Shown: piece by piece, positions 1,772 through 40,415 of the stretch | How the letters are laid out: each line of letters starts with the position of its first letter | Numbering within the stretch: position 1 is the stretch's first letter | Source of the DNA: a bacterium | Lineage (GTDB): Bacteria > Patescibacteriota > Minisyncoccia > Phycocordibacterales > UBA9973 | Assembly (NCBI GenBank): GCA_021824345.1 | Contig: JAKAKW010000011.1 | Coordinates: 9,074 to 73,073 of the forward strand | DNA: 64,000 bases | Direction: 5' to 3' | Program-made: the position numbers and the translations under genes | Notes under the pieces: generated by a model | What the model saw: only the letters and a program-made list of their open reading frames with translations | Databases searched by the model: none | What the model was told of the DNA's origin: nothing

Positions 1772-4700
1772 ATGCGTAAAAAAATTTGGATAATTTTACT
1801 GGGAGTGCTTGCTGTGGCTATCGGTTCGTTTCTGCTGTACGGTAAAATCTTCGCGGCCCTGCCTCCCGGACCGTTAATCTCAATTACCACTTCCGTGCCG
1901 GCCAATGTGGACCAAGGTTCTACAGTTTATATAGGATATACCGTGGATCCGAGAGGGTATACCACCACCTGTCAATGGAACAATCTGGGCGGGAGTCAAT
2001 CAATTACAAGTATCGGCCCGTCTCTTGTCTACACGGACAACAAGATGCCACTTTATGGCTTTAGCTCTAGCAATTCAACGGCATCAATCACTTGTCAAAA
2101 TGCGCAGGGAACCAATACGCGCACTATGGCTTTTAGTGTATGGAATAAAGTTTCCTTTAACGTTATAAGTGGCGTGCAACAGTACGTCGTGCCTTCGGGA
2201 GTAAGCACAATTGGAATTGCGGTGAAAGGCGCCGGAGGCGGACAAGGGGGCGGTGAAGGCGGAAGCAATAGTTATCCGGGCGCAAATGGAGGCAAGGGCG
2301 GAGTGACCGTTCAGTTTGTGAATGTTACCGCGGGAAGCGCTATAAATATAGTTGCGGGAGGAAAGGGACATGGCGGAGGATACAACTCGGGTGGCGGGGG
2401 CGGAGGAGCATCTGCGGCTTACTATCCATCTGACGGTTCCAGCTTTAAGATAATAGCTGGCGGAGGCGGAGGGGGAGGGGCTGATGCATGGGACGGCAAC
2501 AAAATTTATGGCGGGGTAGGCGGTATGGGCGGTACTACAACCGGCGGTGGCGGAGGCGGAGGAGCCGGCAACGGAGCCGGAACCACGCTGGTTGACAACA
2601 ATTCTTATGCCCAAGGAGGAATAGCAGGAGGCGGAGGAGGAGGAAGCGGTTATTACCCCGGAGGTACCAGTAGCGCTACTGGCGGTTACGGGGGAGTAGC
2701 TATCGGAATCTTTTCGGCCGGGCAGAACGCAACCAGTTCTTCCGGATGCGGATTATATGGGAAGGGAGGCAATGGCGGAAGTTTGCTTGACGCAGCCGGA
2801 GGAGTTTGTAACAGAGCCTCTCCTACCGCGGGAGGAGACGGGCTTTATTCTGTTACGGGCAGTGCCATAACTACCAATCTCTCCAATGCGTTTTCATATG
2901 GCAGTGCCTCAAGCGGAGGAAGCGGGGGATTGCAGGTGGGAAATGACGGTTCCGACGGGGCAGTCTATATCTTTACACCTTCTCCCACCCCTCCACCGCC
3001 AGCGCCCATAATTGAACTTTCCGCGCAGAATGTGACGATGAATACGAATTCTACCGCTTATTCTAAAATAACTGCGTTGACTACAAATGTTTCTAGGCTT
3101 GATTGTTCAGTTATTGCTCTTCCAAGCTTCTTATCTTCTCCTTCTGCCGATTGTGCTCAAGTAGCCATTAAATCTGGTTCTACTGCTACAAGTCCGAATA
3201 GCCCAGCACAAGTGTCAATTCTCGCAAAAGGATATGATTTAAATGGTAATGCTATTACTAGTTCCTCATCTTGTTTAGGTACTGCTGTATGGAATGGTCA
3301 GCTCGGAGGTTGTCTAGCCACTTTTGACGTTACAGTCGTCTCCACTCCATCTTGCACTACAACATCCCAAGCTTCTAATCTAACTTCCACGTCTGCCACC
3401 GCAGGCGGAAATATTTCTGACACTGGCGGGGTTCCCATAATTAATCATGGGGTGTGTTACTCTACAAGCGTTGGCAGTATCCAGAGCAATTGTCCGTCTG
3501 ACACCTCTTCTGTCTCTACCGGCTCTTTCGCAGAGTCTTTATCTAACCTCTCTCCCGGTACTTCTTATTATTATCAAGCATTCGCCCAAAATTCCGTTGG
3601 TACTACATATTGTACCAATATGGGTTCGTTTACTACGCCACAGTCAACCTCTTATCTCCCAGATCTTACGCCCGACCCTAATTATCCCGGGGTTACGTTT
3701 CCCACTCCCGTAGTTGCCGGGAGTTCTACAACGTTTTCCCAAAGGATAACAAACATAGGCTCGGCGTCTTCCGGCCCGTTTTATACCCTTGTCCGCTTTG
3801 ACAATGACGCCAACCATGCCACATACAATACGTCTCTCTCAAAAGAAATTTTCTATCCAAATAATTTGGTCCCGACAGGCATAGCGACTATCTCCGCTTC
3901 TCAGACACTTCCCTCTGCCGGCACCTGGTATGTTCAAGCGTGCGCTGACATAAGCAACGAATCTACCATGACCGGTACGATTTCCGAATCAAATGAGGGT
4001 AATAATTGCGGGAATTGGACGCAGATCACGGTGACATCAGCTCCGGCCGTTCCCACTTGTACTTCTCCTGTTGTTACTAACATTACTGACACCTCGGCCA
4101 CCGTAGGTGGTACCATTACTTCAGACGGAGGCGCTACGATCACTTCCCGAGGAGTGGCTGTTAAAAGCAGTACCGGTTCTTATATATACACCGATTTGGG
4201 CGGAACAACAGGTCCGGTTACGAGAGATATTATCAATCTTACGCCCGGTGCTACATACTATTTCCAAGCATGGGCGAATAATAGCGTAGGGAGAGGATAT
4301 TGCCCAGAAACTTCTTTTACCGCGTTAAGAAATACCACGATCAACGGTGTTTGTGCCCCTGTCCACTATAACTGCGCCGCGGGAACAAGTAGCAGTAATG
4401 CGCTATCTTTTAGCGGTCTTAACAGTGTTTATTCATGGGGTTGTCTTGGTTCTAACGGAGGAGTTCCCGCATCCCCTTCATGTTCAGAAACATTGTCTAT
4501 GTCCGGCACTCTTACATCCGATGCCCCTTCCTGTGTAATTCAATCCGGCCAGAGCAGTTGTAATGTTACTTTGACATGGGGTACTACAAATCCTCAAGGA
4601 GTTTCCTCTGTTACGAGTCCGACAGACAGCACAGGAGCCTCGGTGTCTACTAGGGTGGGGACGGGGGATTCCGGTAGCCAGTTGGTTTCTATACCCTATC

Positions 4701-9444: not shown

Positions 9445-9473
9445 GAAGGGCGGAGGGTTACCCTCCGCCCTTC
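9445..9473. repeat. Family-A palindromic repeat (gaagggcggagggtTaccctccgcccttc, perfect 29-bp palindrome) between convergent pgk and HIT genes; likely bidirectional terminator
   Basis: Read from sequence. The same element recurs at 14454-14482 and 26628-26656. Confidence 0.7.
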
Positions 9474-9929: not shown

Positions 9930-9959
9930 CGTGGGAGGCCTTGCCTCCCACGTTTTTTT
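9930..9959. repeat. Family-B palindromic repeat (cgtgggaggccttgcctcccacg) followed by a T-run, in the divergent HIT / recJ spacer
   Basis: 9-bp stem gtgggaggc / gcctcccac with 3-nt loop, then ttttttt; copies at 25130, 31360, 31422, 37581, 37602. Confidence 0.65.
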
Positions 9960-10018: not shown

Positions 10019-11689
10019 ATGCAAAAGTACGGCGAATTGCTGAGAACCCTGCTTGAAAAAAGGGGAATTATGGATCCGGAACAGGCGGAAATATTCTTGA
10101 ATCCGGATTACGAACGGGATCTCTATGATCCCTTTCTGATGAAAGACATGGAAAAGGCGTGCCGGCGCATTTTTGATGCAATACAGAAGGGCGAAAGAAC
10201 GGTGATTTACGCCGACTATGACTGCGATGGAATGCCCGGAGCGGTCATTCTGGAAGATTTTTTTAAGAAAATCGGGTTTGGAAATTACGAGGTGTACATT
10301 CCCGAGCGAAATTCGGAAGGATACGGATTGAACAAGGAAGCCATAGAAAAATTCGCCGAAAAAGGCGCGAGCCTTCTCCTTGCGGTGGACCTCGGTATTA
10401 CTGCGGTGGAAGAAATAGCCTTTGCCAAAGAAAAAGGCATGAATACCATTATAGTGGACCACCACCTTCCGCCGGAAAAACTTCCCGAGGCTTACGCCAT
10501 TCTGAATCCGAAAATAGACGGCTATCCGGAGAAAATGCTTTGCGCCGCGGGAGTGGCTTTCAAGCTGGTGCAGGGGCTTCTTGCCGCCGCGGAAAAAATT
10601 GACACGTTTCCGAAAATCCCCGCGGGATGGGAAAAATGGCTCATGGACATGGCCGGAATCGCCACTCTTTCTGACATGGTTCCGCTTTTGGGCGAGAATC
10701 GGGCCTTGGCGCATTTCGGAATGAAAGTCTTGCGCAAATCTCCCCGGCCGGGACTGCAGAAGCTTCTGCAGAAAATGAGGGTGGAACAGCGCTTTCTTTC
10801 CCCGGACGATATCGCATTTATGGTCGTGCCGAAAATAAATGCGGCCAGCCGGATGGATGATCCGCGCAGAGCTTACGAGCTTCTTTCCACTGATGATCCG
10901 GCTGAGGCCGGAGCGCTTGCGGACCATCTGACCAAGATAAACGACGAAAGGAAAACAATCGTAACGGGCATAATGCGGGAAGTGAACCGAAATTTTGAGA
11001 AAAGGAACACGGAGGAAAGCCTTCGGGAGGTGATAGTGGTTGGCAATCCGAATTGGAAAATAGGGGTTCTGGGCCTGGTGGCCGGCCGGCTTTCGGAAGC
11101 TTATGAACGGCCGGTTTTCGTATGGGGGGCGGACGAAAACGACTGTATCCGCGGGTCCTGCCGTTCCGACGGCTCGGTGTCAGTGGTGGAACTTATGCAC
11201 GAAACAAAGGAGTATTTTACCGAATTCGGAGGACACGAGCTGGCCGGAGGGTTTGCCGCGGAAAGGACCAAGATTCATTTTTTGGAAGACGCTCTGCTTT
11301 CTTCTTTCGCCAAAGTGAAGAGAGAAAAGCCGGAAGCGGCCGCCGATTATGATTTGAAGCTCGGCTTGTCCGATGTGACTATGAAAAACTGGAAGGAACT
11401 CCAGAAAATGGAACCGTTCGGATCGGGAAATCCGAAGCCGGTGTTCTTATTTGAAAATGTGAAGACTGAAAGCGTGAAAAAATTCGGAAAGAATGGCGGA
11501 GAGCATATTGAGATAACTTTCTCGGACGCCGGCGGACGCAAAATTAAAGCCGTTTCTTTTTTTTCCGGCGAAGATTCGTTCAAGGCGCACGTCTTTCCCG
11601 GCTCGTACGCCAATCTCCTGGCCAGCTTCGACCTGTCCCGATTCCGGGGAAGGGAGGAGCTCCGTCTGCGTATTGAGGATATATATTAG
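10019..11689 (+). CDS. recJ: Single-stranded-DNA-specific exonuclease RecJ (short form)
   Basis: DHH family motifs: VIYADYDCDGM, LLAVDLG, IIVDHHLPP, plus the RecJ-type DHHA1 region. Confidence 0.85.
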   Translation: MQKYGELLRTLLEKRGIMDPEQAEIFLNPDYERDLYDPFLMKDMEKACRRIFDAIQKGERTVIYADYDCDGMPGAVILEDFFKKIGFGNYEVYIPERNSEGYGLNKEAIEKFAEKGASLLLAVDLGITAVEEIAFAKEKGMNTIIVDHHLPPEKLPEAYAILNPKIDGYPEKMLCAAGVAFKLVQGLLAAAEKIDTFPKIPAGWEKWLMDMAGIATLSDMVPLLGENRALAHFGMKVLRKSPRPGLQKLLQKMRVEQRFLSPDDIAFMVVPKINAASRMDDPRRAYELLSTDDPAEAGALADHLTKINDERKTIVTGIMREVNRNFEKRNTEESLREVIVVGNPNWKIGVLGLVAGRLSEAYERPVFVWGADENDCIRGSCRSDGSVSVVELMHETKEYFTEFGGHELAGGFAAERTKIHFLEDALLSSFAKVKREKPEAAADYDLKLGLSDVTMKNWKELQKMEPFGSGNPKPVFLFENVKTESVKKFGKNGGEHIEITFSDAGGRKIKAVSFFSGEDSFKAHVFPGSYANLLASFDLSRFRGREELRLRIEDIY

Positions 11690-11750
11690 GATTATATGAG
11701 GGATTTTACCCTTGTATTTTATATATCATATACGATATACACAGTTTTCT

Positions 11751-11918: not shown

Positions 11919-12467
11919 ATGATAGTGGATATGCCGAAAGGAAAAATGATTATATACACTGACGGAGCGGCGCGGGGAAATCCCGGACCGGCCGGCTGGG
12001 GCGCGGTGGTTTTGATACAAGAGCCGAAAGTGCTCGGCAAGGGGCCGGAGGTTCTTCATCGCGGCAACCAAAAGCCGAAGCGCGAAGTTGCGGCGGAACT
12101 GGGCGGAGGGGAAAAGCATGCCACCAACAACCAGATGGAGCTTACGGCTGCCATTGAGGCTTTGAAATACGCGAAGGCAAAAAAATCCGATATGCCCCTT
12201 GAAATATACGCGGATTCAAAATACGTGCTTTTGGGCGTGACTGAATGGATAAAGAAATGGGTGTCCAATGGGTGGAGAACGGCCAATAAAAAGCCGGTGC
12301 TGAATGAAAAGATGTGGCGCGAACTGCACGCTCTGTCGGAGGAATTGCGGCCGTCCTGGTTTTATGTGGAAGGGCACAGCGGGGATACTTATAACGAACG
12401 AGCGGATGAGATCGCCACGGCTTTTGCCGACGGAAGGGAAGGCGAGATTAATTTGAAAAAACCGTGA
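11919..12467 (+). CDS. rnhA: Ribonuclease HI
   Basis: IIYTDGAARGNPGPAGWGAVV...NNQMELTAAIEAL...IYADSKYV...EGHSGDTYNERADEIA. True start may be an internal ATG (11931 or 11946). Confidence 0.85.
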   Translation: MIVDMPKGKMIIYTDGAARGNPGPAGWGAVVLIQEPKVLGKGPEVLHRGNQKPKREVAAELGGGEKHATNNQMELTAAIEALKYAKAKKSDMPLEIYADSKYVLLGVTEWIKKWVSNGWRTANKKPVLNEKMWRELHALSEELRPSWFYVEGHSGDTYNERADEIATAFADGREGEINLKKP

Positions 12468-14408: not shown

Positions 14409-15353
14409 ATGAATTCCAAAGCACTTATAAAAAATGAAAAGAAACCGCTTGCCGAAGGGCGGAGGGTAACCCTCCGCCCTTCGGCGCCCCAGAAACCCGT
14501 AAAAATTTTCCCCCTATATGCCGTTTTTGCGCTTCTAGCAATGGCTATTTTCCTGTTTTCGCTTGATTTGCGGAATTCTCGCCGAGGGCTAACTTTTGCC
14601 ATGCTTGACGTGGGCCAAGGAGACGCGCTTTTTATAGAATCTCCGACCGGCACTCGGATTCTGGTGGACGCCGGGCCTCCGCGGAAAATATTGGGACAAA
14701 TGGCAAGGGTAATGCCCGCCCTTGACCGCACTTTGGATGCGGTGATAATCACTCATCCGGATGCCGATCATATTTCCGGATTCGCGGACATTTTGGAAAA
14801 TTATAAAGTAAAAGAAATTTTTGATCCCGGCATCGCGGATGATTCCGCGCTGTATCAGAACATAAAAAAAATTGCGGAAGAAAAATCCGTGCAGAACATT
14901 CCCGCCAGGCGAGGCATGCGGTTAAATATTGGCGGCGGCGCGGTTATTGATATTTTGTTTCCCGACGCTGATGTTCGCGACTGGGAAACAAATGCAGGCT
15001 CCGTGGTGGCGCGCCTCTCTTATGGCGATACCTCCATACTGCTTGCCGGCGACTCTCCGATAGATACCGAAAAAATCATTTTGGCGCAAACACAGAGGAC
15101 GCTTCTCAAAAGTACGGCGCTGAAAGTGGGCCATCACGGTTCCAAAAATTCCAGTTCGGCCGAGTTCATTGAAGCGGTCGCGCCCAAGTATGCTCTCATT
15201 TCCGCGGGCAAAGAAAACAGATACGGCCATCCGGATCCCGCGGTACTGGACATCTTTGAAAAGTCCGGGATACAAGCGTTCCGCACGGACGAACACGGAA
15301 CCATTCTCATGCGCTCCGACGGCAAGACTGAAGCCTTTTCTTTTTATAAATAG
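14409..15353 (+). CDS. comEC: ComEC C-terminal metallo-beta-lactamase domain protein (separate ORF)
   Basis: TM helix then MLDVGQGDALFIESPTGTRILVDAGPP...IITHPDADHISG...GHHGSKNSSS: ComEC-type MBL domain. The start is uncertain: the family-A palindrome lies inside the first 25 codons, so the true start is probably downstream, e.g. the ATG at 14541. Confidence 0.7.
   Translation: MNSKALIKNEKKPLAEGRRVTLRPSAPQKPVKIFPLYAVFALLAMAIFLFSLDLRNSRRGLTFAMLDVGQGDALFIESPTGTRILVDAGPPRKILGQMARVMPALDRTLDAVIITHPDADHISGFADILENYKVKEIFDPGIADDSALYQNIKKIAEEKSVQNIPARRGMRLNIGGGAVIDILFPDADVRDWETNAGSVVARLSYGDTSILLAGDSPIDTEKIILAQTQRTLLKSTALKVGHHGSKNSSSAEFIEAVAPKYALISAGKENRYGHPDPAVLDIFEKSGIQAFRTDEHGTILMRSDGKTEAFSFYK
14454..14482. 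repeat. Family-A palindromic repeat copy (gaagggcggagggtAaccctccgcccttc)
   Basis: Identical to 9445-9473 apart from the central base; lies 45 nt inside the track ORF starting at 14409. Confidence 0.7.
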
Positions 15354-15361
15354 CACTATTA

Positions 15362-15479
15362 AGCAAAACTTCCGGTACTCTCTTCGGAGGGGGTTTGGCG
15401 AGCGGCGGCGAGCCAACTTCAGGGATTTTTAAGCTTCAAAAATCCCGTACCCGGAGAGGAGAGTACCGGAAGTTTTGCT
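15362..15479. repeat. Structured intergenic element: 21-bp perfect inverted repeats flanking an inner hairpin
   Basis: agcaaaacttccggtactctc (15362-82) and gagagtaccggaagttttgct (15459-79) are perfect inverted repeats about 76 nt apart. The spacer contains the hairpin gggatttttaagcttcaaaaatccc (15422-46). Located between the comEC-lactamase stop and the glyA start. Confidence 0.6.
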
Positions 15480-15497: not shown

Positions 15498-16679
15498 ATG
15501 AAAGATAAACAAGTAGAAAATCTGATCAAAGCCGAAGAAAAAAGGCAAAAAAAGGTCATCAATCTAATCCCGTCGGAGAACTACGTATCCAAAGACGTAC
15601 TCATAGCCCTCGGCTCTATTTTTGACAATAAATACGCCGAAGGATATCCGCACGCCAGATATTACGGAGGCCAGACGAATACGGACAAGCTGGAAGAGCT
15701 CTGCAAGGCAAGGGCCCTCAAGCTTTTCAAACTCTCTCCAAAAGAATGGGCGGTGAATGTCCAACCGCTTTCCGGCGCTCCGGCAAACCTGGCGGTATAT
15801 TTGGGATTGGTTTTGCCCGGAGAAAAAATAATGGGAATGACTCTCACCGCGGGAGGGCACTTGAGCCACGGGCAGAAAGTTTCCATTACCGGAAAAGTCT
15901 GGCAGCAAGTTCCCTATGGCGTAGACCCCAAAACGGAGACGCTTAATTACGACGAATTGAAAAAGCTTGCGATGGAAGAGAAGCCGGCGCTCATTGTGGC
16001 GGGTTACACCGCCTACCCTCGGGTAGTGGACTTCAAAAAATTCAGGGAAATCGCCGATGCTTGCGGAGCATATCTCATGGTGGACATGTCCCACTTCGCA
16101 GGGCTGGTGGCCGGCGGAGCGTATCCGACTCCTTTCAAATATGCCGATGTGGTAACCAGTACCACGCACAAGACCTTGCGCGGTCCGCGCGGGGCTTTGA
16201 TTTTTTCGAAAAAAGATGACAGGAAGCTGGACAAAAAAATTGACAAGGCGATCTTTCCGGGACTTCAAGGCGGTCCGCACATGGGCCAGATCGCCGGCAT
16301 TGCCGTGGCTCTGAAGGAAGACACGGCTCCGGCTTTTAAAACTTACGCAAAGCAAATAGTGAAAAATGCCCGGGCGCTTGCCGGGGAGCTGGAAAAGCTA
16401 GGTTGGCGGATTATTTCCGGAGGAACCGATTCGCACCTGATCCTGATGGACACTTGGATGGAAGGCAAGGGCCTGCCCGGCAAAGACGCCGAGGCTCTGC
16501 TTGAAAAAAACGGCATCATCTGCAACAAGAACACCATTCCCGGAGAGACCCGTTCCCCGTTTGATCCTTCCGGCATCCGCATGGGCACTCCCGCCGAAAC
16601 CACCCGCGGCCGCAAGGAAAAAGATTTTCTGGCTATCGCCCGCAAAATCGACAAGATATTGAGAGCAGGGAAAAAATAA
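15498..16679 (+). CDS. glyA: Serine hydroxymethyltransferase
   Basis: ...VTSTTHKTLRGPRGA... PLP-lysine motif and overall SHMT architecture. Confidence 0.9.
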   Translation: MKDKQVENLIKAEEKRQKKVINLIPSENYVSKDVLIALGSIFDNKYAEGYPHARYYGGQTNTDKLEELCKARALKLFKLSPKEWAVNVQPLSGAPANLAVYLGLVLPGEKIMGMTLTAGGHLSHGQKVSITGKVWQQVPYGVDPKTETLNYDELKKLAMEEKPALIVAGYTAYPRVVDFKKFREIADACGAYLMVDMSHFAGLVAGGAYPTPFKYADVVTSTTHKTLRGPRGALIFSKKDDRKLDKKIDKAIFPGLQGGPHMGQIAGIAVALKEDTAPAFKTYAKQIVKNARALAGELEKLGWRIISGGTDSHLILMDTWMEGKGLPGKDAEALLEKNGIICNKNTIPGETRSPFDPSGIRMGTPAETTRGRKEKDFLAIARKIDKILRAGKK

Positions 16680-22398: not shown

Positions 22399-25300
22399 AT
22401 GGCTTCCGGTGAAGAATCTAAAAAATCCGAATCTGCTCGGCGCGAAGAGCGGATTTTGGAGTTCTGGAAGGAGAATAAAATTTTTGAAAAAACTCTGGGA
22501 AAGCCGTCCCCCAAGGGGGAATTCGTTTTCTACGAAGGTCCGCCTACGGCCAATGGCAAACCTCACATAGGGCACTTTGAGGCGCGTTCTTTCAAGGATG
22601 CCGTTCCCAGGTACAAGACCATGCGCGGATACCATGTGCGTCGGAAAGGCGGATGGGACACCCACGGCCTGCCTGTGGAGCTTGCGGTGGAGAAAAAACT
22701 CGGGCTTAGTTCCAAAAAGGGGATAGAGGAATACGGAATTGCCAAGTTCAACGAGCAATGCAAGGAAAGCGTATGGGAATATGTGAACCTATGGGAAAAG
22801 TTCACCGAGCGCGTGGGATACTGGGTGGATCAGAAGGATGCCTACGTCACTTACCATAACGATTACATTGAATCTCTTTGGAATATCGTAAAAAAAATAG
22901 ATGAACAAGAACTGCTTTACAAGGATTACAAAGTGGTTCCGTGGTGTCCGCGCTGCGGGACGGCCCTTTCCTCGCACGAATTGGCGCAGGGATATGAGGA
23001 TGTGAAGGATCTGTCGGTGTATGTGAAATTCCGCGTGAAATCTTCGCCTGACGCTTTTGCGAAGGTCCTCGGTTCCCCTCGCACAAAGCTTGCTCCTTCG
23101 GAGCTGGAAGCTCGGCCAGACCATTCGCAAAAGCATTCAGTCGAGGATTTCACATATATTCTGGCATGGACCACTACCCCCTGGACTTTGCCGGGCAACG
23201 TTGCTTTAGCGGTAGGAAAAGATATTGATTACACCGCTTTGCGCGTAAAAGGGGTTTCCGAATTGTATATTCTCGCAAGCGATAGGGTAAAGAGTGTCTT
23301 TGAAGGGCAGGAAATTGAAATTGTGCATGACAACATAAAAGGATCAGATCTTGTCGGCCTGGAATACGAACCCTTGTATCCGTATTTCGCGAACACTCTT
23401 CCTGAGAGCGAAAAGTCCAAACTTCCAAAAGCATACAAGGTTTACGAAGCGGATTTTGTGACAACCGTTGACGGCACGGGCGTGGTGCATACCGCCGTGA
23501 TGTACGGACAAGACGACTTCGTGCTGGGCACCGCTATCGGTTTGCCCAAGCACCATCTCGTGGGTCTGGACGGGAAATTCCTGGCCGGCACTGATTTTCT
23601 TGAAGGAAGATTCGTGCGAGACGAAGATGTGGCAGTGGACATTATCAAAGACCTTGCGCACCGGAACCTTTTGCTAAAGAAAGAAAAGTACGAACACTCA
23701 TATCCTTTCTGCTGGCGCTGCCATACCGCGCTCATATATTACGCGCGGGACTCGTGGTACATAAAAGTTTCAGATCCGCGGATTAAGGAAAAGATGATTT
23801 CTGAGAATGAGAAGATAAACTGGGAGCCGGCGCACATTCGGGACGGGCGTTTCGGAGAATGGCTGCGCGATATCAAGGACTGGGCGATTTCCCGCGAGCG
23901 GTACTGGGGAACTCCGCTTCCGGTGTGGACATGCGAGAAATGCAACCAGAGGATTACCATCGGAAGCATTGAGGAACTGAAAAAGCATACGAAGAAATCC
24001 GGCAATCGGTACTTCTTTATGCGGCATGGAGAAGCAGAGAGCAATGTTAAGGGTATGGTGGCTTGCAGAGTGGAGGATAACGATAATTTAATCGAGGCCG
24101 GGAAACAACAAGTATTGTCTTCGGCAAAACAACTAAAAGAAAAGAATATTGATCTTATTTTCTCCTCGGATATTTTGAGGACGAAAGAGACAGCTGAAAT
24201 TGTTAAAAAAGAAATTAGTACTGAAAAAGAAATAATTTTTGACAAGCGCCTGCGCGAGTGGAACGTAGGAAAATTTGACGGAAAAACATGGCACGAATAT
24301 AAAAAATTTGCGCGCCAACACGATGATTGGTACAGTTTTATCCCTGAGGGAGGCGAATCATTCAAAGATATAAAGATTAGAGTTTTTGATTTCATTTACG
24401 AATTGGAGAATAAATACCAAGGGAAAAATATCTTGATCGTCACTCACCAGGCTCCGATTGTAGTTATTCTTAAGGGTTTAGATAAACTTAATGATGAAGA
24501 TACAAAGGCAGGTGATAGCGATGTGAACTTAAGATTCAAGGGAGGAGAGTTTAAAGAGATAGATTTTACCTTACTTCCCCACAACAAAAACTACGAGCTG
24601 GATTTGCACCGGCCATACATAGACGAGGTTCCGCTGGTCTGCGATTGCGGAGGAAAACTTTCTCGTACACCGGAGGTTATGGACGTCTGGTTTGATTCCG
24701 GTTCCATGCCGTTTGCCCAGGATCATTATCCTTTTGAGAACAAAGACTGGATTGACGATCACGGATATCCGGCTGATTTCATATCGGAGGCCATAGATCA
24801 GACTCGCGGATGGTTCTATACCCTGCACGCCGTGGGAGCGCTTGTGGGGAAGGGCAGGGCATACAAAAATGTAATCTGTCTCGGACACCTGATGGATGCC
24901 GAGGGAAAGAAAATGTCAAAACATATCGGCAACGTAGTGGACCCCTGGGAGATGATAGAGAAATACGGGGCGGATACTTTGCGATTATGGATGTACTCCA
25001 TAAACCAGCCGGGCGAGTCCAAGAATTTTGATGAAAAAACGGTGGTGCTTCTCCACCGGCAAATGTTCGGTCTGCTTTACAATGTGCTTTCTTTCTACGA
25101 GCTTTACCGCGACAAAGAGCTTGAGACGATGGGAGGCAAGGCCTCCCACCGGCCTGCCTCGGAAAATATTCTGGATAAGTGGATAATTACGCGATTAAAC
25201 GAGCTGGAGATTCTGTGCACGGAAAATCTTGAGAAATATAAATTATTGGAACCCGTGCGGGCCATGCGCGATTTCATCGACGATCTGTCCACTTGGTATT

Positions 25301-26016
25301 TGCGCCGATCCAGGGAGCGCATTAAGGACGGGGACAAGGATGCCAAGCGCACTTTGTACTTTGTGTTGAAAAATCTTGCCAAGCTTCTGGCCCCGTTCGC
25401 TCCTTTTGCCACCGAGGATATATGGCAAAAGCTTAAAAGCGATGAGGACCCTGCAAGCGTTCATTTGTCCGAGTGGCCGTACAAGGACCAATCCCTTTTG
25501 CAAAAGCTTTTCGGAAAGAAAGAAAAAGTGGATTACTCAGTGCTGGAAAATATGCGCCGAGCCAGGCAGATTGTGACAATGGGCTTGGAAGCTCGGCAGA
25601 AAGCGGGCATAAAGGTGCGCCAACCGCTCGGACTTTTGAGGATAAAGGATCGGAATCTTTCATCGGAGTATGAAGAGCTCATCAAGGACGAGCTCAATGT
25701 TAAAGAAATTGCCAAAGATGCCGGCCTAGAAGGAGAAGTGTTGCTTAATACTGAAATTACTCCTGAACTTAAAGAAGAAGGCGACTATCGCGAACTGGTT
25801 CGCGCTATTCAGGATATGCGCAAAGAGGCGGGGCTCTTACCGAGCGACATGGTAACGCTTCTTTTGGATACTGATGAATCTGGCGAAAAGCTGGCCAAAA
25901 AATTTGAAGAAGATCTGAAGAAAACTGTTAGCGCCGAAAAAATTGAATTCACGGAAAGCGACGGTCCGGAAATCAAAATCGGCAATTCAGCGTTTAAGAT
26001 AAAAATTCAAAAATAG
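22399..26016 (+). CDS. ileS: Isoleucine--tRNA ligase (type 2) carrying three insertions
   Basis: HIGH (PTANGKPHIGH), CP1 editing (WTTTPWTLPGN), KMSKS (KMSKHIGN). 1205 aa is about 150-200 aa longer than typical type-2 IleS. Insertions at 23062-23128, 24001-24570 and 25130-25148 are annotated separately. Confidence 0.9.
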   Translation: MASGEESKKSESARREERILEFWKENKIFEKTLGKPSPKGEFVFYEGPPTANGKPHIGHFEARSFKDAVPRYKTMRGYHVRRKGGWDTHGLPVELAVEKKLGLSSKKGIEEYGIAKFNEQCKESVWEYVNLWEKFTERVGYWVDQKDAYVTYHNDYIESLWNIVKKIDEQELLYKDYKVVPWCPRCGTALSSHELAQGYEDVKDLSVYVKFRVKSSPDAFAKVLGSPRTKLAPSELEARPDHSQKHSVEDFTYILAWTTTPWTLPGNVALAVGKDIDYTALRVKGVSELYILASDRVKSVFEGQEIEIVHDNIKGSDLVGLEYEPLYPYFANTLPESEKSKLPKAYKVYEADFVTTVDGTGVVHTAVMYGQDDFVLGTAIGLPKHHLVGLDGKFLAGTDFLEGRFVRDEDVAVDIIKDLAHRNLLLKKEKYEHSYPFCWRCHTALIYYARDSWYIKVSDPRIKEKMISENEKINWEPAHIRDGRFGEWLRDIKDWAISRERYWGTPLPVWTCEKCNQRITIGSIEELKKHTKKSGNRYFFMRHGEAESNVKGMVACRVEDNDNLIEAGKQQVLSSAKQLKEKNIDLIFSSDILRTKETAEIVKKEISTEKEIIFDKRLREWNVGKFDGKTWHEYKKFARQHDDWYSFIPEGGESFKDIKIRVFDFIYELENKYQGKNILIVTHQAPIVVILKGLDKLNDEDTKAGDSDVNLRFKGGEFKEIDFTLLPHNKNYELDLHRPYIDEVPLVCDCGGKLSRTPEVMDVWFDSGSMPFAQDHYPFENKDWIDDHGYPADFISEAIDQTRGWFYTLHAVGALVGKGRAYKNVICLGHLMDAEGKKMSKHIGNVVDPWEMIEKYGADTLRLWMYSINQPGESKNFDEKTVVLLHRQMFGLLYNVLSFYELYRDKELETMGGKASHRPASENILDKWIITRLNELEILCTENLEKYKLLEPVRAMRDFIDDLSTWYLRRSRERIKDGDKDAKRTLYFVLKNLAKLLAPFAPFATEDIWQKLKSDEDPASVHLSEWPYKDQSLLQKLFGKKEKVDYSVLENMRRARQIVTMGLEARQKAGIKVRQPLGLLRIKDRNLSSEYEELIKDELNVKEIAKDAGLEGEVLLNTEITPELKEEGDYRELVRAIQDMRKEAGLLPSDMVTLLLDTDESGEKLAKKFEEDLKKTVSAEKIEFTESDGPEIKIGNSAFKIKIQK
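23062..23128 (+). repeat. About 66-nt repeat element inserted in-frame in ileS (encodes roughly AKVLGSPRTKLAPSELEARPDHSQ); second copy at 36154-36215
   Basis: aggtcctcggttcccctcgc...agctggaagctcggccagaccat has a 23-nt identical core and about 75-80% identity over 70 nt with the tatD-rpsF spacer copy. From a remembered T. thermophilus IleS alignment, this IleS has about 28 extra residues between VKFRVK and WTTTPWTLPGN. Confidence 0.65.
24001..24570 (+). other. Inserted histidine-phosphatase (phosphoglycerate-mutase-like) domain within ileS
   Basis: FFMRHGEAESN (RHG catalytic motif), IFSSDILRTKETAEIV, DKRLREWNVG, IPEGGES, IVTHQAPI match the PhoE/GpmB-type histidine phosphatase fold. The insert lies between the conserved PVWTCEKC...ELKKH and DLHRPYIDEV...VMDVWFDSG IleS segments and is AT-richer than the flanking ileS sequence. 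Confidence 0.7.
25130..25148. repeat. Family-B palindrome copy (tgggaggcaaggcctccca) in-frame inside ileS, encoding GGKASH
   Basis: Exact match to the intergenic family-B element (31422-31440); translates as MGGKASH within a variable IleS linker. Confidence 0.6.
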
Positions 26017-26627: not shown

Positions 26628-26656
26628 CCAGGGCGGAGGGTTACCCTCCGCCCTAG
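26628..26656. repeat. Family-A palindromic repeat copy (core gggcggagggttaccctccgccc)
   Basis: Same core as 9445 and 14454; outer arms slightly degenerate. Sits after the NUDIX gene and before a TATAAT-containing promoter region for the next gene. Confidence 0.65.
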
Positions 26657-29983: not shown

Positions 29984-31327
29984 ATGAGCAAAGAAAAAAA
30001 ATCGGAAGAGAACAATTTGATGGAAAAAATCGTGTCGCTCTCTAAGCGGCGGGGGTTCATTTTCCAAGGATCGGAAATATACGGAGGCTTGGCCGGCACC
30101 TGGGATTACGGCCCCTTGGGACTGGCCCTGAAGAAAAATATAGAAAGCCTGTGGTGGAACCGCTTTGTGGATTCGCGGGAGGATATGTACGGCATCGACT
30201 CCGCGATACTGATGAATCCGCGAGTGTGGGAGGCGAGCGGGCATGTGTCCGGTTTTTCCGATCCTCTGGTGCAGTGTGAAAAATGCAAGCGCCGTTTCCG
30301 GGCGGATCATTTGGAAAACGCTTCAAAATGCCCGGATTGCGGAGGAAAACTCGGGGAACCCAGGCAATTCAATATGATGTTCAGAACCTCCGTCGGTTCG
30401 GTGGACGGTTCGGATATGGCGGTATATTTGCGTCCGGAAACGGCGCAGGGAATGTTCGTGAATTTCAAAAATATTATTGATTCATATCATCCCAGAATGC
30501 CTTTCGGCATAGCCCAAATCGGCCGGGCTTTTCGGAACGAAATCGCTCCCCGCGATTTTATCTTCCGGGTAAGAGAGTTGGAAATCATGGAATTTGAATA
30601 TTTTGTTCGGGAAGATGAGTGGAAGGGCATTTTTGAGTATTGGCGCAAAGAAATGCTTTCCTGGTTTTTATCGCTCGGTTTTGAAGAAAGCGACATAAAG
30701 GAAGTGGAAATACCGGAGGAAGATCGAGCGCACTATTCCAAGCGCACCGTAGATTTTCATTTCAATTTCCCCCATAAATTTGATGAAATTGCCGGCCTCG
30801 CTTATCGCACCGGTTTCGATCTGGAGAACCACATCAGGGAGAGCGGATCGGATTTGTCGTATTTGGATCCGGTGTCCGGCGAAAGATTCGTCCCTCACGC
30901 GCTTGAGCCCACTTTCGGCCTCGGCCGGCATCTTTTGGCCGTTCTATCCAAGGCTTATACCGAAGACAATCTCGGCGGAGAAACAAGAGTTTTTCTAAAA
31001 TTCCCCGCAAGGCTGGCACCGATCAAAGCGGCCGTGTTTCCTTTGCTCAAAAACAAGCCGGAATTGGTAAAAAAAGCGAGAGATATATATGAGACCCTGA
31101 AGAAAGAAGTGCCTCAGACTGAATTTGACGACAACGGCAACATCGGCAAGCGCTATCGCCGGCAGGATGAAATCGGCACTCCCTGGTGCATTGTGGCGGA
31201 TTTCGACACCTTGGAAGACGACACGGTTACAGTTCGCGACAGGGATACCGGAAAACAGGAGAGGATGAAAATTGCGGAACTGTCCGGATATATTAAAGAA
31301 AAGCTGGCGGCAGGAAGTTTGCGATAG
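29984..31327 (+). CDS. glyQS: Glycine--tRNA ligase (alpha2 dimeric type)
   Basis: RRGFIFQGSEIYGGLAGTWDYGPLG..., class II motifs, insertion domain with the C..C pair. Confidence 0.9.
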   Translation: MSKEKKSEENNLMEKIVSLSKRRGFIFQGSEIYGGLAGTWDYGPLGLALKKNIESLWWNRFVDSREDMYGIDSAILMNPRVWEASGHVSGFSDPLVQCEKCKRRFRADHLENASKCPDCGGKLGEPRQFNMMFRTSVGSVDGSDMAVYLRPETAQGMFVNFKNIIDSYHPRMPFGIAQIGRAFRNEIAPRDFIFRVRELEIMEFEYFVREDEWKGIFEYWRKEMLSWFLSLGFEESDIKEVEIPEEDRAHYSKRTVDFHFNFPHKFDEIAGLAYRTGFDLENHIRESGSDLSYLDPVSGERFVPHALEPTFGLGRHLLAVLSKAYTEDNLGGETRVFLKFPARLAPIKAAVFPLLKNKPELVKKARDIYETLKKEVPQTEFDDNGNIGKRYRRQDEIGTPWCIVADFDTLEDDTVTVRDRDTGKQERMKIAELSGYIKEKLAAGSLR

Positions 31328-31352
31328 GAAAACAGCGGGTGCACGGCAGCAG

Positions 31353-31446
31353 CGGGAGAGTGGGAGGCCTTGCCTCCCACTTTTTAATATGTGTCCTGCC
31401 AGGCCACGACTTCTAGGAGTGGGAGGCAAGGCCTCCCACTCTCCCG
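31353..31446. repeat. Pair of family-B palindromes in inverted orientation with extended 28-bp arms, flanking a 37-nt spacer
   Basis: cgggagagtgggaggccttgcctcccac (31353-80) ... agtgggaggcaaggcctcccactctcccg (31418-46); MITE-like or nested-hairpin architecture between glyQS and the M16 peptidase gene. Confidence 0.65.
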
Positions 31447-31487
31447 CCGGGCTTCCTACAAGCTTTTGATTATGGTATGTTTTATGG

Positions 31488-35307: not shown

Positions 35308-36123
35308 ATGCCGAAATACATAGATATACATTGCCATACGAACTTTCAGGTGTTCAAAGAAGATTATAAAGACGTTATAAAGCGGGCGCTCCGGGGCGAT
35401 ACCTGGCTCATAAATGTCGGCACCCAGGCGGATACTTCCCAAAGGGCCATAGAAATCGCCCGTGAATATCCGGAAGGAGTTTATGCTTCCATCGGCCTGC
35501 ATCCCATTCATACCGGCAAGTCATATCACGACGAGAAGGAGCTCGGGGAGGGAGGCGCGGAATTCACTTCCCGGGGAGAGGTTTTTGACCATGATACGTA
35601 TCTTGCCTTGGCGAAAGATCCGAAGACGGTTGCAATAGGGGAATGCGGCCTTGATTACTATCGCACCGAACCCGAATCCATTGAAAAGCAAAAGCAGGCG
35701 TTCATCGCGCAGATAGAATTGGCCAATGAAGTTGGCAAGCCTCTCATGCTTCATGTGCGCGACGCTTACGAAGATACTCTGGAAATTTTAAAAAAGTATG
35801 CCAAAGTAAAGGGAGCGGTGCATTTTTTTGTCGGCACGCCCGCGCAGGCGAAAAATTTTCTGGATTTTGGTTTTATGCTTTCCTTTACCGGAGTGCTGAC
35901 TTTCACTCATGATTATGATGAGGTTGTAAAAGCCGCTCCGCTTGATATGATTTTGAACGACACTGATTCGCCTTATGTGGCTCCCGTGCCGCACAGGGGA
36001 AAACAAAACGAGCCGGCGTACATACGGGAAGTGACAAAGAGAATCGCCGAGCTGAAAGGAATATCTGAAGAAGAAGCGGCCTCCGCCATCATGGCAAACG
36101 CCCGGCGGCTGTTCAAGATCTAG
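35308..36123 (+). CDS. tatD: TatD-family metal-dependent hydrolase
   Basis: IDIHCHTNF (HxH) start and the TatD conserved His/Glu/Asp pattern. Confidence 0.85.
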   Translation: MPKYIDIHCHTNFQVFKEDYKDVIKRALRGDTWLINVGTQADTSQRAIEIAREYPEGVYASIGLHPIHTGKSYHDEKELGEGGAEFTSRGEVFDHDTYLALAKDPKTVAIGECGLDYYRTEPESIEKQKQAFIAQIELANEVGKPLMLHVRDAYEDTLEILKKYAKVKGAVHFFVGTPAQAKNFLDFGFMLSFTGVLTFTHDYDEVVKAAPLDMILNDTDSPYVAPVPHRGKQNEPAYIREVTKRIAELKGISEEEAASAIMANARRLFKI

Positions 36124-36127
36124 AAGG

Positions 36128-36241
36128 GCCGGGGAACGCACAGGAGTTCTGCTAGGTCCTCGTTCTCCTCGCTTTAGGTCCGCTTCTACGAAGCTGGAAG
36201 CTCGGCCAGACCATCGCAGAGCTCCTGTGCGTTCCCCGGCC
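36128..36241. repeat. MITE/RPE-like element: 26-bp inverted repeats flanking a 62-nt core shared with ileS
   Basis: ggccggggaacgcacaggagttctgc (36128-53) pairs with gcagagctcctgtgcgttccccggcc (36216-41) with one mismatch. The core 36154-36215 matches ileS 23062-23128. Confidence 0.65.
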
Positions 36242-36294
36242 TATTCATATTCCTTTCGGCCTGAAATTGGACTTTTAAAGCCCTTTCTGTTAAT

Positions 36295-36849
36295 ATGCAG
36301 CATATGTCAGAGACGGAAAACGATGACAAAAAATCCGCAGAAATCGCGGAAAATAAAGACACGGCCGAATCGGCAAAATCCGCCGGGAAGCAGATATACG
36401 AGCTCGGCTATCTTTTGGTGCCCACCATTGCTGAGGAAAACGCCCCTGCGTTGTTCGGCAACCTGAAAGAATTAGTGGTTTCTTTCGGCGGAGAGATAAT
36501 TTCCAGCGAAATGCCCAGAATGATCCGCCTTGCTTATGTAATGGCCAAAACCATTGATAACGTAAAAAACAAGTTTGATACGGCATATTTCGGATGGATA
36601 AAGTTTGAGGCGGAAAAGAGCGCCGTCGCTGAAATAAAGAAGAAGCTTGACGCAAACACCGACCTTATCCGCTTCCTGATCACCAAAACCGTCCGGGAAA
36701 ACACTCTTGCTCCGAAGAAGTTCAGCGGAGGCGGTTCAAGCAGGTATCGCGGATCCGCCGAACACAAGGAGGAAAAAGAGCCCTCCGCTCCCATGGATGA
36801 AGAGAAAGTGGACAAGGAAATAGAAGCCCTGGTAACCGAGGCGGCTTAA
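36295..36849 (+). CDS. rpsF: 30S ribosomal protein S6 with N- and C-terminal extensions
   Basis: Core IYELGYLLVPTIAEENAPALFGNLKELV...RLAYVM...DLIRFLITKT matches S6; rpsF-ssb-rpsR operon context. Start could be 36295 or 36304. Long charged C-terminal tail. Confidence 0.7.
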   Translation: MQHMSETENDDKKSAEIAENKDTAESAKSAGKQIYELGYLLVPTIAEENAPALFGNLKELVVSFGGEIISSEMPRMIRLAYVMAKTIDNVKNKFDTAYFGWIKFEAEKSAVAEIKKKLDANTDLIRFLITKTVRENTLAPKKFSGGGSSRYRGSAEHKEEKEPSAPMDEEKVDKEIEALVTEAA

Positions 36850-37556: not shown

Positions 37557-37578
37557 CGAATTTTATAAGTTTTAATGA

Positions 37579-37630
37579 AGGTGGGAGGCCTTGCCTCCCT
37601 AAAGGAGGCAAGGCCTCCCACCTTTTCTTT
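37579..37630 (+). terminator. Terminator of the rpsF-ssb-rpsR operon built from two abutting family-B palindromes
   Basis: ggtgggaggccttgcctccc taaa ggaggcaaggcctcccacc followed by ttttctttat. Confidence 0.7.
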
Positions 37631-38213: not shown

Positions 38214-40415
38214 TTAACCGCCCGCCTGTTCCGAGAACTTTTTTCGGATATCCTTCAAAATCTGGCCCGCGATTTTCGGATTTTCTTTCAAAAATGTCCG
38301 AGTGGAATCGTAGCCCCGTCCGAGCTTCACTTCCTCTTCGCCATCCGGCTTGCCCGCCTGCCCGGTTGGCTTGTATGAATACGAACTGCCGGACTTTTCC
38401 AAGATCTTAAACTTTTCTCCGAGGGCGATGAGTTCGCCTTCTTTGGAGATGCCTTCGTTATAAATGATGTCGAATTCCGTCTGCTTGAACGGCGCGGCTA
38501 CTTTGTTTTTTACCACTTTCACTCGTGTTCGCGATCCCACCACTTCTTCTCCTTTCTTTATTTGGGCGATGCGCCGGATGTCCATTCGAACACTTGTGTA
38601 AAACTTAAGAGCCTTGCCTCCGGGCGTTGTTTCCGGCGAGTTGCTGACCAGGCAGCCATCCGCAAAATAATTGTGGTTATCAGCGACGCTTATATCAAAT
38701 CTTTGCCGGCTTATCCTCTGGCCATCATGGTACGGCGTACGGGTTCTGATTTCTTTTATTATCATCGGGCGCAATATCTGGCTTTGCTTTGATTGTTGAG
38801 GATCCGTCTGATGATAGCGCCCGCGGTATTTTTCAGGAAGCTTGTATTCCATGGACTTAGGAACGAAAGGGGATATCAGTTCAAAGAATTTATCCGACTC
38901 TGCGGCACTAAAACCCAGCACTTGATATTCTCCGCATTTCCTCCATTTGGGCGCAATATCATAGCGGGCGAATATCCGGTTGATTCTGTCAACGCTCTCC
39001 GGCTGATTTCCGAAGGCGTTGGCGTACAGCCCGGCTCTCGGCCGCCGCGCGTACCATTTTCCTTTCCATTCTGAAAGTCCGGTCTGCATTGTTCCGTCTC
39101 CGCAGTACCATAAAGCTATCATGCGAGGAGTAATTTGCTCCACCAAAAACTCCGGCACGATCTTTTTTTGTTGCGGATAAAACAGTCCGTGTAGGTCTCC
39201 GATGCGCAGAAGATGTTTGGTTTCCACAATGGCATTTCCCCTAGAATTTTCCATTACGACATTGCTGGCGATATCGCCCAATTCCTCTGCGAGCCATGAC
39301 ACGTATTGGGATTGTTCTGCTCCATGTTCCTCCCTGAAATATGCGGTTTGTTCGTTAAATTTCTTAATGTTTCCATCTCCCAGCAAAGAGCCGATGATAA
39401 TCTCCTCTTGTTCCGGGGAGAGGTCTATATTATTTATATTCACTGATATCTCATCTCCGGCTTTCAGTTCCTTGGCCTTTTTCCAGCCAGCCGGCGTATA
39501 TATTTTGTGGTCGGGAGTGCAGGAAAATCCTCTTCGTCCGTTTCCCGTATGGTTTTGAACAAAAAACTGCAAGAATGAATCCGTTTCTCCGTTTATGTGC
39601 CAGTCAGTTATGAACTTTGCTTCTACGCATTTCTTTTCAAAATTATAAGAAAGCACCTTCACTTTTTTAGTTTGATTGACAATTTTCCCGATTTTTTCTT
39701 TCGTTCCGTCGGCCAGCAGCACTTTCGTATCGTAGGAAAAACATCCGAACATCACCCCGATCTGCATTCTGATTTGGTTTATGAAAATCACTACGGTCTT
39801 GCTTCGCGCCACGATTGCCGTGAGCTTGCGCAGAGCTTGGGACATAAGCCGGGCCTGCTTGCCCACATGATATGCTCCCATATCTCCCTCGATTTCATCT
39901 TTTGGAGTAAGGGCTGCCACCGAGTCCACCACCACCACGTCAATCTTGCCGGTGCGCACAAGCGATTCCACTATTTCCAGCGCCTGTTCTCCGGTATCCG
40001 GCTGGGAAATCAGGAGTTCGTTTATGTTGACGCCGAGACGTTTGGAATATTCCGGATCCATGGCATGCTCCGCGTCAATGTACGCGCATATTCCGCCTTT
40101 CTTTTGCGCCTCCGCCACTATATGCAGGGACAGGGTAGTCTTCCCGCTGGACTCCGGGCCGAAAATTTCGATAATCCTTCCGCGGGGAATGCCTCCGACC
40201 CCCAAGGCCATATCCAGGCCGATTGAGCCCGTGGGTATTACGTTCACATCCACCTTCGGGGTATCCCCGAATTTCATAATAGTGCCTTCGCCAAACTTGG
40301 TCTGCAGGGCTTTCAGGGTGTCTTCCAATCCTGAAGCGTTTCCGCCTTTTCCGGCGGAACCCTTTTTTTCTTCACTTATTTCCTTCTGGGGGTCGGTTTT
40401 TGTTTTTTTAGGCAT
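38214..40415 (-). CDS. recA: Recombinase RecA interrupted by a 368-aa intein
   Basis: N-extein has Walker [10 protein letters not shown] and ...[11 protein letters not shown]-extein resumes [23 protein letters not shown].... Between them is a Cys1...VSN intein with LAGLIDADG motifs. Confidence 0.9.
38640..39743 (-). mobile_element. RecA intein with LAGLIDADG homing-endonuclease domain
   Basis: Starts [14 protein letters not shown] (block A, Cys1), ends [11 protein letters not shown]|S (terminal Asn, +1 Ser). Internal [11 protein letters not shown] and [18 protein letters not shown] motifs. 1104 nt = 368 codons, in frame, at the MFG|SPETT site. Confidence 0.85.

Follow-up and report, generated by a model that had tools for sequence, protein, structure and literature searches.

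Short palindromic elements that lie within bacterial genes are known from Rickettsia, where the RPEs insert in-frame in genes (Ogata et al. 2000, 2002, as summarised in PMC10969869). They are hairpins of about 100-150 bp, dispersed through a reduced genome both between genes and in-frame within unrelated housekeeping genes, where translation of the element adds a loop that carries a recurring peptide, and they have no known transposase (PMC10969869). Other hairpin-forming repeats follow different rules. The MITEs, among them Correia/CREE, ERIC, BOX and Nezha, are short, non-autonomous elements with inverted repeats that leave filled and empty sites and are at times intragenic, and they are defined by terminal inverted repeats (TIRs) conserved family-wide and by target-site duplications. 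The REP, REPIN and BIME repeats that go with RAYT are palindromic, often found just past stop codons and extragenic, the arms being the conserved unit and the loop the variable one. Coding palindromes are also known from the mitochondria of Nematomorpha, where long near-perfect inverted repeats run through translated genes with hairpin and reading frame both preserved, the arms encoding conserved native protein without any shared mobile core (PMC6649704). Finally, template switching, which is a mutational process and not an element family, can create and maintain perfect hairpins, one event being enough to copy one arm from the other; it thus explains perfect long stems, multi-nucleotide 'compensatory' changes acquired at once, and the outward growth of palindromes from the sequence that flanks them (PMC8794818).

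The hairpin element considered here lies between tatD and rpsF in the window, by which we mean the whole 64-kb stretch of DNA that was analysed. It has the size, the dispersal between and within genes, the translated loop insertions with a recurring peptide and the lack of a known transposase that mark RPEs, a likeness of architecture; it belongs to another phylum, its copy number is apparently low, and conservation, which in RPE families extends from end to end, is here confined to the inner module, each copy having an outer stem of its own. To our knowledge there is no reason to expect CPR elements to be homologous to RPE-1 to RPE-10, given the phylum and the base composition. The 26-bp arms of the element have neither of the two properties that define MITEs, and membership of the REP/REPIN class fails because it is the loop, and not the arm, that is conserved. 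What sets it apart from the Nematomorpha palindromes is a dispersed module that has been inserted, and template switching, which may have acted here, would leave the shared module of about 80 nt unexplained. We consider it probable, though well short of certain, that the tatD-rpsF hairpin is a copy of a small, non-autonomous, RPE-like palindromic family, tolerated within ORFs, of Paceibacteria/Nomurabacteria-type CPR, and not a TIR-bounded MITE. Full-text literature searches returned no description of such elements in CPR/Patescibacteria.

The spacer copy (copy A) occupies positions 36127-36241. Upstream is tatD (35308-36123, plus strand), encoding a TatD-family hydrolase of 271 aa whose C-terminus matches that of its homologs and for which a 100% identical protein (P0121) carries PF01026; downstream is rpsF (36295-36849, plus strand), encoding ribosomal protein S6, with PF01250 found on the identical gene of contig L145. 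Between the end of the tatD stop codon (36123) and the first base of the rpsF ORF (36295) lie 171 nt of spacer, in which copy A begins 4 nt past the stop. Its left arm GGCCGGGGAACGCACAGGAGTTCTGC (36127-36152) and right arm GCAGAGCTCCTGTGCGTTCCCCGGCC (36216-36241) are complementary at 25 of 26 positions, and a repeat finder returned them as a 26-nt pair with 96% complementarity. They are the sole matches to the arm 26-mer in the 64 kb at up to 3 mismatches, and 100 shuffles gave none. At 36147/36221 alone the pairing is imperfect, being T-G (U-G) on the plus strand. Folded as RNA, copy A forms one long hairpin of -78.2 kcal/mol (z -8.98); as ssDNA it also forms a hairpin (z -8.8), and the minus strand reaches z -7.6. 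The earlier note had placed this inverted repeat at 36128-36241, with 114 nt in all and a core of 62 nt; the repeat is real and so are the 25/26 arms and the 171-bp spacer, while the start moves to 36127, the length to 115 nt and the distance between the arms to 63 nt. Its description of a repeated element without coding capacity also holds for this hairpin-forming insertion, which carries TAG stops. Copy A is not an assembly artefact, since the element recurs in the independent Logan contig L145, which comes from a very closely related strain (24 SNPs in 4327 nt); within the element the two differ by one SNP, G to A, in the left arm.

Within copy A, outer arms can be distinguished from an inner module. 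The left outer arm GGCCGGGGAACGCACAG (36127-36143) is private to this copy, being unlike the arms of all others, and the right outer arm (36225-36241) is its complement. Between them lies the shared inner module (36144-36224, plus strand; nhmmer 36144-36223, E 5e-23; repeat family D15), which holds a 22-mer found unchanged in ileS and comprises an inner stem TTCTGC/GCAGA(G), an AGGTCC box (36154-36159), a small apical hairpin GCTTC-TAC-GAAGC (36182-36194) and the invariant block AGCTGGAAGCTCGGCCAGACCAT (36192-36214).

Comparison with relatives gives the site a history. TatD homologs all end at the same residue, which provides a basis for aligning the spacer, and in contig L149, whose TatD is 74% identical, the site is empty: its spacer of 37 nt runs from the stop codon straight into TTGGAC-18 nt-TAATAT and the start of rpsF. 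This promoter-like sequence recurs in the window (36267-36296, plus strand), 25 nt downstream of copy A, so that 4 + 115 + 25 nt are extra ahead of it; this putative promoter rests on its conservation in L149 and on its match to the consensus, and a promoter scan of the window gave no call there. The comparison of the tatD-rpsF spacer proposed in the earlier note thus yielded an empty site with the same rpsF promoter. The element would have entered the spacer after the split from relatives with the 37-nt spacer. In other relatives the tatD-rpsF spacers are unrelated, with lengths of 127 or 221 nt, the latter holding a different, AT-rich repeat. Repeats of other kinds are found nearby in related genomes: in L150 the rpsF-ssb and ssb-rpsR spacers (11533-11743 and 12185-12395) share an AT-rich repeat, some 200 nt long, with one copy in each, and two Logan contigs of another relative (L146 and L147) both end 114 nt past tatD in a repeat of the CCGCCTTCGCC type, which suggests assembly breaks induced by the repeat. 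The predicted -10 box of rpsF ends 7 nt ahead of an alternative ATG at 36304, an arrangement conserved in L149, and this suggests that an rpsF mRNA starting translation at that ATG would be leaderless.

With the tatD stop on one side of it and the rpsF promoter on the other, copy A would form the 3' tail of the tatD transcript. A hairpin that arose on the spot as a terminator or 3' end of tatD, its similarity to ileS owing to chance or convergence, would account for a very stable hairpin that starts 4 nt past a stop codon and upstream of the next promoter. We regard this as very unlikely. No intrinsic terminator was called at 36127-36250, where there is no U-tract and the tail reads CCTATTCATATTCC, relatives do without the hairpin, and homology over some 60-80 nt to copies within ORFs means that the similarity cannot be chance.

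A second copy (copy B) is found in ileS. The host gene (22399-26016, plus strand) encodes an IleRS of 1205 aa, and the hairpin lies in-frame within it at 23035-23153 on the same strand, as delimited by its fold, with an nhmmer match at 23054-23133 (E 3.5e-24). Positions 36162-36214 of copy A match 23072-23124 of copy B at 79%, and the 22-mer GCTGGAAGCTCGGCCAGACCAT is identical at 36193 and 23103, which bears out the earlier report of a core repeat shared with ileS. That report had the ileS copy without arms. The 26-nt arm sequence of copy A is indeed absent there, but copy B has arms of its own of about 29 nt, GTGAAATCTTCGCCTGACGCTTTTGCGAA (23035-23063) and TTCGCAAAAGCATTCAGTCGAGGATTTCAC (23125-23153), whose sequence is unrelated to those of copy A, and its fold is a hairpin about as long as that of copy A (-57.3 kcal/mol, z -6.93). 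Of these arms, 23035-23052 and 23135-23153 are private, flanking a shared module at approximately 23053-23134.

Copy B is itself an insertion in ileS. It appears as a clean insertion of 33 aa, residues 217-249 of the IleRS (nt 23047-23145), between residues that are adjacent (214/215) in the solved IleRS 8c8u_A. Among 120 Paceibacteria-type IleRS homologs most have the empty site, as does L152; where these homologs read GQEN, the protein of the window carries the 37 residues SSPDAFAKVLGSPRTKLAPSELEARPDHSQKHSVEDF. The suggestion that the spacer TIRs had captured an ileS fragment falls with this, as the ileS copy is an insertion relative to both orthologs and the solved structure. The core of about 62 nt has no stop codon in any of six frames, as read from the sequence, while the full 119-nt hairpin has stops in all four unused frames. 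The segment from K-F to W measures 135, 105, 114, 108, 99 and 36 nt in six ileS orthologs, every length a multiple of 3, and from the open frame and these lengths we conclude that the ileS element is, on sequence grounds, translated and not excised. The surrounding loop, between VKF and WTTTPW, is an insertion hot spot with at least four unrelated types of insert across CPR lineages, for example ISSRFTxKG, SEVEGKGPSTDSGRA and PPAGGQ (homologs P0002, P0006, P0053, P0096 and P0108). The same IleRS (22399-26016) contains an internal histidine-phosphatase domain (PF00300 in homologs; ...GNRYFFMRHGEAESN...), which seems to be common to this CPR clade.

Further copies came from a scan of GTDB, taken as one genome per species, with the 19-mer CTGGAAGCTCGGCCAGACC. 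It returned 39 loci, 37 of which are chance matches in high-GC coding DNA; the two real ones (L002 and L003) are both on contig JAKALJ010000005.1 of the MAG WY5.bin123 (JAKALJ01), which is also CPR. The host of the L002 copy is a uvrC-like ORF that stays open throughout the element and reads it in the frame used in ileS (...PRPKFAPSELEARPDHSGKH...). At L003 an intergenic copy (L003a) lies 10 nt upstream of uvrB, and a profile built from the four copies found a decayed one (L003b; nhmmer E 3.7e-6) at 4395-4460, in-frame in uvrB and without the long stem. Residues 474-512 of this UvrB, which correspond to the decayed copy, form a clean 39-aa insertion between residues adjacent in 9gy7_E. The perfect stem around the conserved interior measures 18 bp in L002 and 28 bp in L003. 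In total there are four full copies and one decayed, at five unrelated loci in two genomes, the elements being 115-132 nt long, with two copies in 64 kb of the window and three in 16 kb of WY5.bin123. Homologs of the window proteins that are 64-72% identical carry the source names Nomurabacteria, Paceibacterota and Patescibacteria, and these names are the basis of the host assignment. As with RPEs, the copies are thus both intergenic (copy A and L003a) and in-frame in unrelated housekeeping ORFs whose flanking protein is intact (ileS with 33 aa and uvrB with 39 aa added, uvrC open), and the peptide APSELEARPDHS recurs in the ileS and uvrC copies in the same reading frame.

Locus L003 has other features. 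A clean insertion of 44 aa in UvrB (residues 333-376, flanks adjacent in 9gy7_E) is encoded by a different, very stable in-frame hairpin (L003 3957-4076, -91 kcal/mol) with a stem some 30 bp long and the apex ...SAPPAGGD..., and a PPAGG-like peptide is also present at the ileS insertion hot spot in homolog P0096. On the minus strand, ARAGORN reports a tRNA at L003 422-495 with anticodon UUA, labelled 'tRNA-Stop', which is possibly an ochre suppressor or recoding tRNA.

Alignment of the copies shows what is shared. Family-wide, this is the inner module of about 80 nt, whereas the outer 11-20 bp of stem are private to each copy, and the outer arms of copies A, B, L002 and L003a have no sequence in common. 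The inner stem of the module is 8-10 bp, of the type TTYTGCGA / TCGCARAA or CTTTYCC / GGRAAAG, and is alike between copies. Next come the boxes AGGTCC(TCGG) and CCAGACCAT, in which GGTC pairs with GACC, and, in modules of the window type, an apex with CCTCGC, a 5-bp hairpin GCTYC-N3-GRAGC in which copies differ by a compensatory change of T-A to C-G, and the invariant block, 23 nt unchanged in four copies. The closest pair of modules is ileS versus uvrC (89.5% identity); copy A and L003a are 79.7% identical, copy B and L003a about 80%, and copies A and B 68%.

This anatomy bears directly on the classical MITE proposed in the earlier note, that is, a deletion derivative of an IS whose 26-bp TIRs would be recognised by a transposase in trans with duplication of the target site. 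The element is small, non-coding in the spacer and AT/GC-neutral, has a long inverted repeat and is repeated as a short multicopy element (115-132 nt, five copies) with filled and empty sites (empty in L149 for the spacer and in L152 for ileS), so that repeated insertion, as the note had it, stands. What is conserved is the reverse of a MITE: the arms are wholly different between copies, similar only over the inner 8-10 bp, and it is the interior that is kept. The search for target-site duplications that the note called for found no consistent flanking direct repeats at the hairpin feet of any copies; L003a has TTAA on both sides of the module, which cannot be distinguished from the symmetry of the palindrome. 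The arm sequence is unique, the 19-mer of the inner arm of copy A being absent from the viral contigs and from all loci examined except the strain variant L145. No transposase domain was detected by a Pfam scan of ten otherwise unrecognised ORFs within the 64 kb of genome covered by the window, and no RAYT-like gene was seen there. A MITE in this strict sense is therefore quite unlikely.

The ileS orthologs permit a closer look at how the hairpin is maintained. Five of them, from the window, L142, L143, L144 and L153, have a related hairpin at the same site, in host IleRS proteins 63-71% identical to that of the window. The boxes AGGTCCTCGG...CCAGACCAT are conserved among them, the arm sequences and apices differ, and unrelated short hairpins have been substituted at the apex. 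RNAalifold on their alignment (A2) gave 24 pairs with 85% of cells paired and 10 of the 24 pairs changed on both sides; 0 of 500 shuffles reached either figure, and structures slid by 1-3 columns dropped to 26-49% paired. A per-column table drawn from individual folds of the orthologs shows the same pairing pattern. The ileS stem is thus kept through many double changes inside coding sequence. It may be kept by selection for the hairpin, by intrastrand template switching, or by both.

Covariation of this strength, across orthologs of 63-75% protein identity, raises the alternative of a functional structured RNA (or DNA hairpin) under purifying selection, its apical box serving as a handle for a protein or nuclease and its private stem as substrate, for example for RNase III-type processing, mRNA stabilisation or ribosome pausing, with dispersal only secondary. 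All five independent copies are sense to their host or downstream gene, the 23-nt block is invariant in four of them, and the lone imperfection of the copy A arms is a U-G pair on the sense strand. Orientation by transcription and orientation by replication are indistinguishable here, because the plus strand of the window also has positive GC skew. Less easily reconciled with such an RNA are the lack of any Rfam family at gathering score, the replacement of the apex by unrelated short hairpins in ileS orthologs, the absence of the element from the same sites in close relatives, the loss of the stem in L003b and the want of a functional theme among the loci, which comprise a 3' UTR, a 5' region and three ORFs. 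Taken together, these points make the alternative unlikely, although the sense orientation and the stem covariation fit an RNA-level function at least as well as they fit selfish DNA.

How the module came to be at its various sites may be read from the inner arms. Those of the window ileS copy, TTTTGCGAA/TTCGCAAAA, match the intergenic L003a copy and not its own orthologs, while the inner arms of the ileS orthologs, TTTTCCTCA/ATTCAGAAAA, match the uvrC copy. From this mismatch between inner-arm type and locus the module looks to have been exchanged between copies, the outer ileS arms still being orthologous. For L003a, the outer arms (GGCCGAAGGGAGGAC) are similar to a distinct family of short palindromes, GCCGAAGGGCGGAGGG, which has three members in the window, a hint that the L003a module may be seated, as it were, in the loop of a GCCGAAGGGCGGAGGG-type palindrome. 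Identity of 89.5% in even the closest module pair gives no sign of recent transposition.

These observations are consistent with the RPE-like family favoured above, for which one may envisage the following course. The module would spread without a transposase, by copying or gene conversion into sites where a palindrome or related hairpin is already present. Intrastrand template switching during replication, selection for the hairpin, or the two together would account for the origin and growth of its arms and for their lasting complementarity. In ileS, uvrC and uvrB the element is read through as an in-frame loop insertion of 33-44 aa. For the host it would be mostly a tolerated passenger, which at tatD-rpsF may provide the tatD transcript with a stable hairpin at its 3' end. 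Against this reading, there are only five independent copies, and neither machinery nor target-site duplications nor defined element ends were found. It is also conceivable, if rather unlikely, that the copies represent a CPR-specific hairpin class with a conserved apical 'handle', AGGUCCUCGG...CCAGACCAU, and a stem of 20-30 bp that is free to vary, long maintained in essential genes either through an RNA- or DNA-level function (a processing, pausing or replication signal) or through transposase-free homing into hairpin loops, with arms made by template switching from flanking DNA.

One further origin was considered, namely a remnant of the 3' part of a tRNA gene, of att-site or SINE-like derivation. 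AGGTC-CTCGG-TTC resembles the variable loop, T-stem and start of the T-loop, CCAGACCA resembles an acceptor end with ACCA, and both boxes are found, in this order, in a phage tRNA-Pro(CGG) (L157). In the element, however, CTCGG is followed by a second CTCGG in direct and not inverted orientation, so no T-arm forms. ARAGORN and the Rfam tRNA model are negative for all copies, and a two-box scan of viral sequences gave 16 matches, none with arms, against some 14 expected by chance on a rough estimate made without the exact size of the collection, so that the number is not clearly above chance. Because tRNA detectors find nothing in the elements, the likeness to the phage tRNA is treated as coincidence, and a tRNA origin seems highly improbable.

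Searches farther afield added no copies. An nhmmer profile run with --max across the window recovered only the two known ones, and an 18-mer core searched in the 241 million records of JGI metagenomes gave 92 loci, all of them chance matches in high-GC coding DNA. Viral contigs scanned for the core, the two-box motif and the arm yielded chance matches or nothing, and the encoded peptide had no match among 1.84 billion representatives, either by word-index search or by exhaustive HMMER. Rfam 15 has no match in the whole window at gathering score; for three copies searched at E<=10 only generic miRNA-precursor models appear, with 19-41 bits against thresholds of 62-99, and the ileS copy has none. 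Threaded by eye, no ribozyme fits (HDV-like with L3 'UCCUCGC', twister, pistol or hammerhead), and the apex is replaced in orthologs. An inverted repeat in glyS (30278-30457) was set aside as a further insertion, since it covers native coding sequence for a zinc knuckle.

If the RPE-like reading holds, ultra-small CPR genomes, like those of Rickettsia, would host palindromic DNA that lasts in-frame in the essential genes ileS, uvrB and uvrC, the hairpin surviving through paired changes in both coding arms. This would supply a second, phylogenetically remote system in which to study the transposase-free spread of selfish palindromes and their tolerance by proteins, and a natural test of template switching versus selection as the keeper of perfect long hairpins. 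On a practical level, such elements inflate protein lengths and break short-read assemblies, and in CPR annotation they can be mistaken for MITEs, terminators or small RNAs.

Palindromes of other families are found in the same window. One, GTGGGAGGCCTTGCCTCCCAC, lies after several genes, sometimes with a T-run (9931-9951, 31360-31381, 31419-31439 and 37578-37624), and occurs once in-frame inside ileS (25130-25149), where it encodes ...MGGKASHRP...; at 31352-31447 two GTGGGAGGCCTTGCCTCCCAC units make up a perfect inverted repeat of 30 bp with -89 kcal/mol. Another, GAAGGGCGGAGGGT(T/A)ACCCTCCGCCCTTC, at 9445-9473, 14451-14485 and 26628-26656, has no T-run after it; it is the family that the outer arms of L003a resemble, and its copy at 14451 falls within the predicted 5' end of the ORF at 14409-15353 (...PLAEGRRVTLRPSAP...). 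An intergenic hairpin at 15362-15479, just upstream of the ORF at 15498, has 24-bp arms of 96% complementarity, an interior of 70 nt with two sub-hairpins and a folding energy of -74 kcal/mol; it has no Rfam match and its sequence is unrelated to copy A. Finally, RecA (38214-40415, minus strand) has 733 aa versus 341-346 aa in relatives, and contains an intein-like insertion.
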